In this document: positions 1,664 through 3,528 of the stretch, piece after piece
How the letters are laid out: every line of letters starts with the position of its first letter
Position numbering within the stretch: position 1 is the first letter of the stretch
IMG/VR virus record: IMGVR_UViG_2648501841_000012
DNA length: 4,459 nt
Strand: one strand, 5' to 3'
Source: a virus
Taxonomy: Duplodnaviria; Heunggongvirae; Uroviricota; Caudoviricetes
Translations under genes and position numbers: made by a program
Notes under the pieces: model-generated
What the model was told of the DNA's origin: nothing
The model's database searches: none
The model's input: only the letters and a program-made list of their open reading frames with translations

Positions 1664-1677
1664 TTTACGTACGTAAA
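1664..1677. repeat. Perfect 14-bp palindrome TTTACGTACGTAAA; candidate binding site for a dimeric DNA-binding protein
   Basis: Bases 1664-1677 equal their own reverse complement. An adjacent inverted repeat TGCAT-N7-ATGCA lies at 1638-1654. Both are in the intergenic region about 50-90 nt upstream of the 1725-1746 terminator. Function is not established. Confidence 0.5.
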
Positions 1678-1724
1678 AAATCAGGTATGCTGTTAAGAGT
1701 GGTTATTTCGCCGCATAGCTTGAC

Positions 1725-1746
1725 CCCGCCTCTGAGCGGGTTTTTT
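1725..1746 (+). terminator. Rho-independent terminator
   Basis: All-GC 5-bp stem CCCGC (1725-1729) / GCGGG (1736-1740), 6-nt loop CTCTGA, followed by TTTTTT (1741-1746). It lies 140 nt downstream of the CPBP stop codon. Confidence 0.65.
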
Positions 1747-1869: not shown

Positions 1870-2109
1870 ATGCTGAAACAGCAGGATATGACAGAAACCG
1901 CCAGAGTTGTGTTTGATGAATTAAGCGTCACCGAACCGGCGACGGTCGGGGAGATTGCGCAGAATACGTACCTTTCACGCGAGCGCTGCCAGTTAATACT
2001 GACCCAGCTGGTTATGCGGGTCTGGCAGACTATCAGTTCGGTTGTTACAGACGCCTTCAGTCCTGAAGGCTTTTTTATTTGTGGTAAATGGGCGGCTGGT
2101 GGGTGTTAG
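1870..2109 (+). CDS. Hypothetical small protein (79 aa), possible helix-turn-helix; coding status uncertain
   Basis: Track ORF. GGAAAGGG lies 10 nt upstream of ATG 1870. Segment GEIAQNTYLSRERCQLILTQL looks like a helix-turn-helix recognition region, with weak unverified resemblance to small PapI/FaeA-like regulators. The frame runs straight through a canonical intrinsic terminator at 2053-2080 (hairpin encodes AFSPEG, T-run encodes FFIC), so a full-length translated product is doubtful. Confidence 0.4.
   Translation: MLKQQDMTETARVVFDELSVTEPATVGEIAQNTYLSRERCQLILTQLVMRVWQTISSVVTDAFSPEGFFICGKWAAGGC
2053..2080 (+). terminator. Rho-independent terminator embedded in the 3' end of ORF 1870-2109
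   Basis: 7-bp stem GCCTTCA (2053-2059) / TGAAGGC (2064-2070), 4-nt loop GTCC, followed by TTTTTTATTT (2071-2080). Confidence 0.7.
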
Positions 2110-2137: not shown

Positions 2138-2168
2138 TTGATGATAATTTACCTTTTGGGGCTATAAT
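2138..2168 (+). promoter_or_regulatory. Candidate sigma70 promoter for the AraC-family gene
   Basis: -35 TTGATG (2138-2143), 19-bp spacer, perfect -10 TATAAT (2163-2168), 35 nt upstream of ATG 2204. Consensus match only; the spacer is at the upper limit. Confidence 0.4.
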
Positions 2169-2203
2169 TGAACTAACCAATTGCTAATGAAAGTAAAATT
2201 ATA

Positions 2204-2917
2204 ATGGTTGTTGTCTGTTCAGTTATCATGGTTTGCTCCCCAATTAATATTTTTCTTGAAAAGGATACGTTGTCACTTAAGCCCGGCTCAGTCGTTCTGG
2301 CCACCAAATGCATCAGGGCGCTTTTCCTTATGCATTATGGCAAAGTTAAAATTTTCGATATAAACCATTCCATAGTAAGTCAATATCTGGAAATTCAGCA
2401 TAAGCTGACAAGAACTCATCTGACTGACGTTCCGCTTTATCTGTCACTGGAACCCAACAACCCTGCGTTGGCTGAGGCTTTAATTACCAGCCAGAGATTT
2501 TCCGGAGATACCACGGATATGTTTCTTATGATGGCATGCCTGTCGCTGTTTGAATCAGATGAACGGATATTATTATTTTTAAGTGGATGTTTATCCAGTA
2601 TAAGTGCCAAAGTCAGGGCGATAATTCAGACAGATATATCAGCAAGCTGGACGCTTGGTGCGATTGCGTTACGCCTGCATATGAGTGAGAGTTTGTTAAA
2701 GATAAAACTGAAAAATGAAGGGCACATGTTCAGTCGCTTGTTGCTGGAAGAGCGGATGCGTGTTGCTGTCAATATGTTATGTTCCCGGCATGGATATGGA
2801 CAGGCTGTAGCAGAAAAATGCGGTTATTCAAGCTGGTCCTACTTTATTTCTGTATTTCACCGCTATTATGGCTTCCCGCCAGACAGATATGTATCCAGGC
2901 AAGGGCTTGATTATTGA
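2204..2917 (+). CDS. AraC/XylS-family transcriptional regulator (prophage-borne; possibly PatE/Psr-like)
   Basis: Track ORF. The C-terminal ~100 aa carry the AraC double-HTH signature (WTLGAIALRLHMSESLLKIKLKNEGHMFSRLL ... GYSSWSYFISVFHRYYGFPPDRY). No obvious Shine-Dalgarno, so the start (2204 vs internal ATG 2228) is uncertain. By context it resembles the prophage-encoded AraC-like regulators described in EHEC (PatE, PsrA/PsrB); that is memory, not an alignment. Confidence 0.8.
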   Translation: MVVVCSVIMVCSPINIFLEKDTLSLKPGSVVLATKCIRALFLMHYGKVKIFDINHSIVSQYLEIQHKLTRTHLTDVPLYLSLEPNNPALAEALITSQRFSGDTTDMFLMMACLSLFESDERILLFLSGCLSSISAKVRAIIQTDISASWTLGAIALRLHMSESLLKIKLKNEGHMFSRLLLEERMRVAVNMLCSRHGYGQAVAEKCGYSSWSYFISVFHRYYGFPPDRYVSRQGLDY

Positions 2918-2945: not shown

Positions 2946-3021
2946 AGCCCTTTAGCTCAGTGGTGAGAGCGAGCGACTCATAATCGCCAGGTCGCTGGTT
3001 CAAATCCAGCAAGGGCCACCA
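2946..3021 (+). tRNA. ileZ: tRNA-Ile2 (anticodon CAU, lysidine type, reads AUA); could be auto-annotated as tRNA-Met
   Basis: Hand-folded 76-nt cloverleaf: acceptor AGCCCTT/AAGGGCC (A1:C72 mismatch), D-arm GCTC-AGTGGTGA-GAGC, anticodon arm AGCGA-CTCATAA-TCGCC (anticodon CAT at 2979-2981), T-arm GCTGG-TTCAAAT-CCAGC, discriminator A, encoded CCA. The arms closely match E. coli ileX-type tRNA-Ile2 as recalled. The symbol follows the ileZ-argN-argO naming of Stx-phage tRNAs and is memory-based. Confidence 0.85.
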
Positions 3022-3028
3022 TCACATA

Positions 3029-3105
3029 CCGCCATTAGCTCATCAGGAAAGAGCGCCAGCTTTCGAAGCTGGTTGCGCGGAGTTCGGGTCCCCGAAGGCG
3101 GTCCA
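3029..3105 (+). tRNA. argN: tRNA-Arg (anticodon UCG), atypical T-arm
   Basis: Hand-folded 77 nt: acceptor CCGCCAT/AAGGCGG (one A:A mismatch), D-arm GCTC-ATCAGGAAA-GAGC, anticodon arm CCAGC-TTTCGAA-GCTGG (U33, anticodon TCG at 3063-3065, A37), variable TTGCG, T-arm CGGAG-TTCGGGT-CCCCG (one mismatch, G at position 58 where A is usual), discriminator T, encoded CCA. The symbol is positional (middle gene of the trio) and memory-based. Confidence 0.6.
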
Positions 3106-3118
3106 TTATCTGTATCCT

Positions 3119-3195
3119 GCGTTGTTAGCTCAGCCGGACAGAGCAATTGCCTTCTAAGCAATCGGTCACTGGTTCGAATCCAGTACAACGCGCCA
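3119..3195 (+). tRNA. argO: tRNA-Arg (anticodon UCU, reads AGA/AGG)
   Basis: Hand-folded 77 nt: perfect acceptor GCGTTGT/ACAACGC, D-arm GCTC-AGCCGGACA-GAGC, anticodon arm ATTGC-CTTCTAA-GCAAT (anticodon TCT at 3153-3155), variable CGGTC, T-arm ACTGG-TTCGAAT-CCAGT, discriminator G, encoded CCA. Resembles the argU type. Confidence 0.85.
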
Positions 3196-3209: not shown

Positions 3210-3234
3210 GGCTCGCTTTTGCGGGCCTTTTTTT
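3210..3234 (+). terminator. Rho-independent terminator of the tRNA operon
   Basis: 7-bp stem GGCTCGC (3210-3216) / GCGGGCC (3221-3227) with one G:U pair, TTTT tetraloop, then 7 T (3228-3234). It lies 15 nt downstream of the last tRNA. Confidence 0.75.
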
Positions 3235-3375
3235 AAATGTCTCACAATTCAGGCGGTTGACTGTTGTCTGGTTTGCGGGGAGTTTGTTAAAAGAAACTGG
3301 CATGGTGAATCCCCCTGTGCGGAGGGGCAATCAGCGAGTAGGTATATGGGATAATCGCGGATTCAGGTGCTGGTA

Positions 3376-3528
3376 NNNNNNNNNNNNNNNNNNNNNNNNN
3401 NNNNNNNNNNNNNNNNNNNNNNNNNNNNNNNNNNNNNNNNNNNNNNNNNNNNNNNNNNNNNNNNNNNNNNNNNNNNNNNNNNNNNNNNNNNNNNNNNNNN
3501 NNNNNNNNNNNNNNNNNNNNNNNNNNNN
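3376..3528. other. Run of 153 N (assembly gap or masked sequence); true length and content unknown
   Basis: Contiguous n characters from 3376 to 3528. All track ORFs with poly-X translations are artefacts of this run. Confidence 0.95.

Follow-up and report, generated by a model that had tools for sequence, protein, structure and literature searches.

psrA of the Escherichia coli O157:H7 prophage Sp4/CP-933M: a secretion regulator on a probably self-promoted cassette of the late operon

The 4,459-nucleotide (nt) stretch of viral DNA analyzed here in full (hereafter the window; record IMGVR_UViG_2648501841_000012) carries an AraC-type open reading frame (ORF) at positions 2204-2917 of its plus strand. 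By sequence identity, this gene is psrA itself, an already known regulator of a defective lambdoid prophage of Escherichia coli O157:H7. We hold with high confidence that psrA is the prophage-encoded secretion regulator of Sp4/CP-933M, that it is borne on a self-promoted cassette within the late operon, and that its product is an AraC/XylS activator of acid-resistance genes. The window is 99.9% identical to the Sakai prophage Sp4, and also corresponds to the yccA-adjacent prophage of strain FRIK944 and of the resequenced EDL933, where it is called CP-933M. The ORF shares 100% identity with ECs_1087 of Sakai, which bears out the initial annotation of this DNA, made without database searches, in its proposal of a prophage regulator of the PatE/PsrA/PsrB type. 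The encoded protein, WP_000261909.1, is identical in FRIK944 and EDL933. The database names attached to this exact protein are uninformative, and the name "psrA (ecs1087, Sp4)" is given by the discovering (Tree) laboratory (PLoS Pathog 2026, PMC13502914). A 2011 publication described the biology of psrA, which was taken up again in 2026, and the identification itself adds nothing new to it.

Sakai harbors a second copy, ECs_2191 of prophage Sp11, the only other one found, and its 90.7% identity over 237 residues matches the published relation between PsrA and PsrB (90% identity according to reviews). Compared at its own locus (L022 3933-4646, minus strand), ECs_2191 fills the same slot next to ileZ5, with pchB and the O-island 57-defining nleG genes nearby. 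Of 22 substitutions between PsrA and PsrB, 17 map to the N-terminal regulatory domain (residues 1-123) and five to the DNA-binding domain. No AraC gene was found in Sakai Sp9 or in CP-933N of the resequenced EDL933 when the second copy was sought there. Of 5426 complete E. coli genomes, 923 contain the gene according to a sensitive blastn search, at a median of two places per genome, and the O157:H7 genomes listed possess one to three places each, mostly two. All ten homologue loci lie in lambdoid late regions, in keeping with a family restricted to prophages and linked to pch and effector genes. Reviews describe the psr genes as associated with the pch regulators, and pchA is located ~4 kb downstream in Sp4.

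The Sakai annotation starts the gene at ATG 2330 (195 codons), and the NCBI pipeline at ATG 2204 (237 codons). The N-terminus MxVxCSVIMVCSP is common to homologues with identities as low as 39%, and an M..(V/T)CSV(I/V) start is also present in YdeO, AppY, and the PatE candidate described below. Because of this conserved N-terminus, ATG 2204 is taken as the correct start, yielding a 237-residue protein, the Sakai form being 42 codons short. Both Sakai psr genes, ECs_1087 and ECs_2191, are annotated 42 codons late. The loss (2204-2329) strips four predicted β-strands from the regulatory domain.

Both Pfam AraC models (HTH_18 / HTH_AraC) pass on the psrA ORF, as anticipated from the initial annotation, and cover its C-terminal ~100 residues with two helix-turn-helix motifs. 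The last 100 residues match the DNA-binding domain of GadX. Full-length homology is observed with YdeO (31% identity, E-value 5e-32), with AppY (29%, 2e-34), and with ECs_0287 (37%, 1e-52), which is likely PatE, so that the comparisons with GadX and PatE suggested at the outset both return matches. The NCBIfam YdeO model NF007407 aligns PsrA residues 1-229 with positions 1-230 out of 253, scoring 104.1 bits. This is far under the equivalog cut-off of 348, and PsrA was therefore retained as a homologue and not as an orthologue of YdeO. A first AlphaFold model, obtained with 14 close homologues, reached a predicted local distance difference test (pLDDT) of 59.8 and was discarded. The second, which followed a profile search and relied on an alignment of 45 sequences, reaches a pLDDT of 89.6 and a predicted template-modeling score (pTM) of 0.85. 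It predicts a β-barrel and helical regulatory domain of AraC type (residues 1 to ~132) followed by a double helix-turn-helix domain (residues ~133-237). Foldseek matches this model full length with Rns, CsvR, and ToxT (E-values 4e-11 to 5e-8), the hits with Rns (4e-11) and ToxT (1.5e-8) extending over ~250 columns and indicating the same two-domain fold. At the sequence level, the psr family profile aligns to ToxT residues 54-269 (E-value 8.5e-20) and to Rns residues 95-261, the alignment with Rns stopping short of its first 95 residues. The N-terminal ~130 residues, in which no obvious cupin signature had been seen by eye, are thus confidently modeled as a compact AraC-type β-barrel with a helical linker, and not as an orphan domain. 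A cupin-like barrel of this kind is usual, though not universal, among AraC/XylS factors.

The putative psrA promoter covers positions 2138-2168 of the plus strand, with a perfect −10 TATAAT at 2163-2168 and a weak −35, and its transcription start is predicted at ~2174-2177, corresponding to Sakai 1,178,647-1,178,650. Within the window, ATGATA-16-TATAAT (2141-2168) is the best-scoring sigma-70-like site (10/12). Nine further family loci, with protein identities of 39-90%, were compared with the window, and in 10/10 TATAAT or TATACT precedes the ATG by 41 or 39 nt. When the seven distinct sequences among them are aligned, no block but the −10 is fully conserved, the start codon apart, in the 75 nt upstream of the gene. 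The −10 is kept even where the flank is unrelated or a DNA methylase gene precedes psr (loci L015, L016, and L018). Because this −10 is the sole invariant block upstream of seven diverged members, the promoter appears to travel with the psr gene. A sigma-S type promoter was also considered, as TATACT occurs in several homologues and patE is RpoS-dependent, and is left as speculation.

Since the −10 is conserved across loci and homology breaks at the edges, the interval 2138-2917 appears to be almost exactly a mobile cassette with its own promoter, the cassette extending over ~2138-2945. Its left edge falls in the promoter, and its right edge is marked by the transfer RNA (tRNA) genes ileZ (CAT), argN (TCG), and argO (TCT), at 2946-3195 on the plus strand. 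Homology with the methylase-carrying phages (Sakai Sp9, Stx2a_1447) spans the TrmB-like ORF and the terminator preceding psrA, breaks at ~2137-2140, and restarts exactly at the 5' end of ileZ. Within psrA the GC content is 38-45%, compared with 52% in the sequence immediately upstream. The terminator, already noted ahead of the gene in the initial annotation, is a strong intrinsic one at 2053-2076 of the plus strand (GCCTTCAGTCCTGAAGGC then TTTTTTATTT), and ends the frameshifted TrmB-like ORF. It combines a 7-bp GC-rich stem with a U6 tract (−10.5 kcal/mol, z −3.8, none of 200 shuffles as good) and is nearly invariant in five aligned related phages.

The slot between this terminator and ileZ is a site of exchange. 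Its content is a psr cassette in the window and in Sp11, a cassette with a DNA methylase in Sakai Sp9 and Stx2a phages (L006 17981-19080; L020 2040-3139), both psr and methylase in L015 and L016, and solely a 3' remnant of the methylase in Sp5. Stx2 phages, phiSTEC1575-Stx2k among them, encode Psr homologues of 89-91% identity whose genes immediately precede the tRNA cluster and stx2AB (L002 4479-6802; L007-L010 4001-6329). A psr promoter active in the lysogen would, in such phages, point at the toxin genes.

Upstream of the cassette, the late promoter PR' is placed by homology to Sakai Sp5 at 1686-1698 of the plus strand, with a −10 TATGCT at 1686-1691 and a start at ~1698, corresponding to Sakai 1,178,171. 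Window positions 1664-1746 share 75% identity over 84 nt with the Sp5 region just after Q. The Sp5 PR' start has been mapped by differential RNA sequencing 258 nt upstream of tR' (Sy 2020), and it indeed lies exactly 258 nt before the end of the U-run of the sole strong terminator in the interval from Q to the tRNAs. In Sp4, the putative PR' is located ~1.1 kb downstream of Q, with a CPBP/Rce1-like gene in between. The psrA gene then lies ~506 nt downstream of the PR' start, behind the strong terminator at 2053-2076 and a weak terminator-like hairpin with a U-run at 1725-1746 of the plus strand (CCCGCCTCTGAGCGGG then TTTTTTGTGC), in the PR' leader. This hairpin (−9.0 kcal/mol, z only −0.85) is conserved in the Stx2a phage and in Sp5. 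It was rejected as the main late terminator, its fold being no better than those of shuffled sequences and Sp5 transcription passing the homologous hairpin and going on to a terminator 258 nt from its start. Downstream of psrA, no terminator-like site with a stable fold is found between 2917 and 2946, and the first intrinsic terminator follows argO (3210-3234, plus strand, GGCTCGCTTTTGCGGGCC then TTTTTTT).

Reviews report that PsrA and PsrB raise GadE and YhiF, enhance acid resistance, and repress indirectly the enterocyte effacement locus (LEE). According to the same literature, PsrB binds the gadE and hdeA promoters, and deletion of psrA raises type III secretion while that of psrB has little effect. 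The psrA messenger RNA (mRNA) changes with the anti-silencing small RNA HnrS under conditions inducing the type III secretion system, with no prophage induction described (PMC13502914). Expression in the lysogen, as the initial annotation had it, fits the deletion phenotype and the HnrS-responsive mRNA. AppY and YdeO, the full-length homologues of PsrA, act on gadE, in agreement with what has been published on PsrA and PsrB. In the mechanism that we propose, transcripts initiated in the lysogen at PR' (~1698) would stop at the hairpins 1725-1746 and 2053-2076, and psrA would then be read from its own promoter. With its perfect −10, weak −35, and AT-rich setting, this promoter is probably low-level and open to regulation or silencing; it would be the lysogenic promoter of the gene, presumably silenced by H-NS/Hha. 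Through its pair of helix-turn-helix motifs, PsrA would activate gadE and yhiF, with hdeA, a target of PsrB, as a probable third gene, resulting in more glutamate-dependent acid resistance, and the raised acid-resistance regulation would in turn damp type III secretion. Once the prophage is induced, psrA would in addition be reached by read-through of Q-modified RNA polymerase. A conserved, gene-linked −10 located behind two terminators is consistent with the Q-independent transcription that had been put forward for this gene.

Several points weigh against a self-promoted secretion regulator. The promoter had been described as near-consensus, which holds for its −10 but overstates the site as a whole, since the −35 matches at only 4/6 positions, either as ATGATA (2141-2146, 16-nt spacer) or as TTGATG (2138-2143, 19-nt spacer). 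TATAAT occurs four times in the window against 3.3 expected, which is not beyond chance as judged from shuffles, and the promoter argument thus rests on conservation; from the window alone, a psrA promoter is only plausible. The position of the psrA transcription start is a prediction, and the role of PsrA in GadE/YhiF regulation and secretion is taken from reviews and later work. Furthermore, psrA is co-oriented with the late operon, so that read-through from PR' is possible, and with its terminator-free interval up to the tRNAs the gene is only incompletely insulated. In a rival explanation, psrA is essentially a late phage gene, transcribed mainly by Q-dependent read-through of both terminators from PR', the TATAAT being incidental. 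The common orientation of psrA with Q, PR', and the tRNAs, the short distance from the PR' start, the lack of a terminator after psrA, the weak −35, and the unexceptional TATAAT would all suit such an arrangement, as does the invariable location of the family just after a Q gene, which belongs to at least three Pfam antiterminator families (PF06530, PF06323, PF03589). However, no block other than the −10 hexamer is invariant upstream of seven diverged homologues, where it keeps to −41/−39 even with an unrelated flank, and the promoter lies inside the cassette boundary. Moreover, Sp4 is degraded, and yet its psrA displays a deletion phenotype and a measurable, regulated mRNA with no induction described. 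We therefore consider predominant read-through unlikely, albeit not negligible.

Two other explanations bear on the identity and on the targets of the gene, and we give very little credence to either. The reviews label psrA as z1789 of O-island 50 (CP-933N), in conflict with the resequenced EDL933, where the protein sits in CP-933M, and this also counts against the identification made here. Taken literally, this label would make the present gene, which belongs to the yccA prophage (CP-933M, O-island 44 position), a third, uncharacterised paralogue, the published PsrA being another gene. However, tblastn returns no Psr homologue in the potB-adjacent CP-933N of the resequenced EDL933, the O157:H7 genomes listed have mostly two places, the Sakai pair displays precisely the identity expected of PsrA and PsrB, and the discovering laboratory equates psrA with ecs1087 (PMC13502914), which together leave a third paralogue very improbable. 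We suspect that the conflicting label is a legacy of the original EDL933 prophage assembly or annotation. That prophage assembly is known to have been difficult.

It is equally improbable that the main targets of PsrA are phage sequences, such as the palindrome TTTACGTACGTAAA (1664-1677), the tRNA promoter, or stx in relatives, instead of the host acid-resistance genes. The invariant position of the family next to the late promoter region, and of its homologues directly upstream of the tRNAs and stx2AB in Stx phages, would be in keeping with such targets. The palindrome, for which binding by PsrA had been raised as a point to check, lies however at −34 to −21 of the putative PR'. Lambdoid late promoters carry their −35 element and a Q-binding element in that upstream zone. 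Because of this position, the palindrome is a poor candidate for a PsrA site and more likely belongs to the promoter/Q-binding region than to a PsrA operator. As a general rule, AraC-family domains read long, asymmetric, AT-rich sites and not 14-bp palindromes. In addition, YdeO and AppY, to which PsrA is homologous over its full length, both act on gadE, and the published data put PsrA and PsrB on gadE, yhiF, and hdeA.

Regarding the rest of the window, the left end contains the 3' end of rusA, followed by the Q antiterminator gene (233-613) and by the gene of the CPBP/Rce1-like membrane protease (759-1583), which exhibits a GC content of 33-40% and lies between Q and the putative PR'. Promoter-like sites are present ahead of it at 674-746, and most of the relatives that were examined (L012, L026, and others) lack a gene of this type after Q. 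The protease gene probably represents a further accessory insert. After an intergenic stretch comes the frameshifted TrmB-like ORF (65 codons, 1870-2066). The corresponding reading frame (window 1870-2109) is conserved before psr or the methylase in all relatives, and its frameshift at ~2016/2017, here and in Sakai, results from the loss of one G (GTTATGGCGGG changed to GTTATGCGGG). A promoter-like TTGATT-17-TATTAT at 2907-2935 of the plus strand overlaps the psrA stop codon upstream of ileZ, and phages of both kinds, psr-carrying and methylase-carrying, keep a TTATTAT 10-16 nt upstream of ileZ. A tRNA promoter has been reported in the corresponding Sp5 interval (Sy 2020), and the 2907-2935 site is probably the tRNA promoter. 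The three tRNAs are the only above-threshold matches of an Rfam scan of the window; an STnc100 match at 3271-3385 scored below threshold and was set aside. A partly N-masked spacer then separates argO from a DUF1737/SASA esterase gene. The run of 153 N (3376-3528) occupies the place of stxAB in Stx phages, and Sakai has there 100 nt of ordinary sequence, indicating that the masked stretch is not length-matched. Sp4 as a whole is a degraded prophage, with insertion sequences and inverted lysis genes.

PsrA represents one way in which O157:H7 prophages rewire core regulation, tying acid resistance to type III secretion. To this established biology, the present analysis makes modest, practical additions, namely the start codon of the 237-residue form, the conserved gene-linked −10 with its predicted transcription start, and the exact cassette edges, psr and the DNA methylase appearing as alternative inserts upstream of the tRNA/stx locus. 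It further adds a confident fold for the sensor domain and draws attention to the clash of the reviews' locus tag with the corrected EDL933 assembly. A speculative idea, which we regard as doubtful, is that the activity of PsrA, and not just its amount, is switched through its small ExsA/Rns/ToxT-like N-terminal barrel. The switch could be a ligand from the gut, such as a fatty acid, or else a partner protein, and would connect attachment to host cells with the shut-down of type III secretion through GadE. In such a case, PsrA and PsrB could answer different signals, most of their differences being located in the N-terminal domain. As a further part of this doubtful idea, a psr promoter active in the lysogen could feed Q-independent basal transcription toward stx in those Stx phages that carry psr directly upstream of the tRNAs and stx2AB.

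The closest known system is that of PsrB (z2104; ECs_2191, Sp11), which shares with PsrA the order of TrmB-like ORF, terminator, psr, and ileZ, the same promoter region, and the vicinity of a pch gene (pchB) and effector genes. PatE (z0321, CP-933H/Sp1; candidate ECs_0287), which activates gadE and hdeAB according to a review, is likewise a prophage-borne AraC-like protein with an MxxxCSVI N-terminus. YdeO (253 residues) and AppY (249 residues) of E. coli K-12 resemble PsrA in size and in the theme of their regulon. AppY is also prophage-borne (DLP12) but, unlike PsrA, has additional roles, whereas ydeO is chromosomal and under EvgAS control. At the structural level, Rns, CsvR, ToxT, and the regulatory domain of ExsA share the predicted PsrA fold, although the N-terminal domain of PsrA is ~25-30 residues shorter and the identity is 10-29%. 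Rns, CsvR, and ToxT are AraC regulators of virulence whose N-terminal domain binds fatty acids. Lastly, the psrA cassette resembles a phage moron in its own promoter, conserved as judged in silico, its GC content lower than that of its flanks, its presence/absence polymorphism at a fixed slot, and its precise boundaries. It differs from a moron in being devoid of a terminator of its own, the next one being located after the tRNA cluster.
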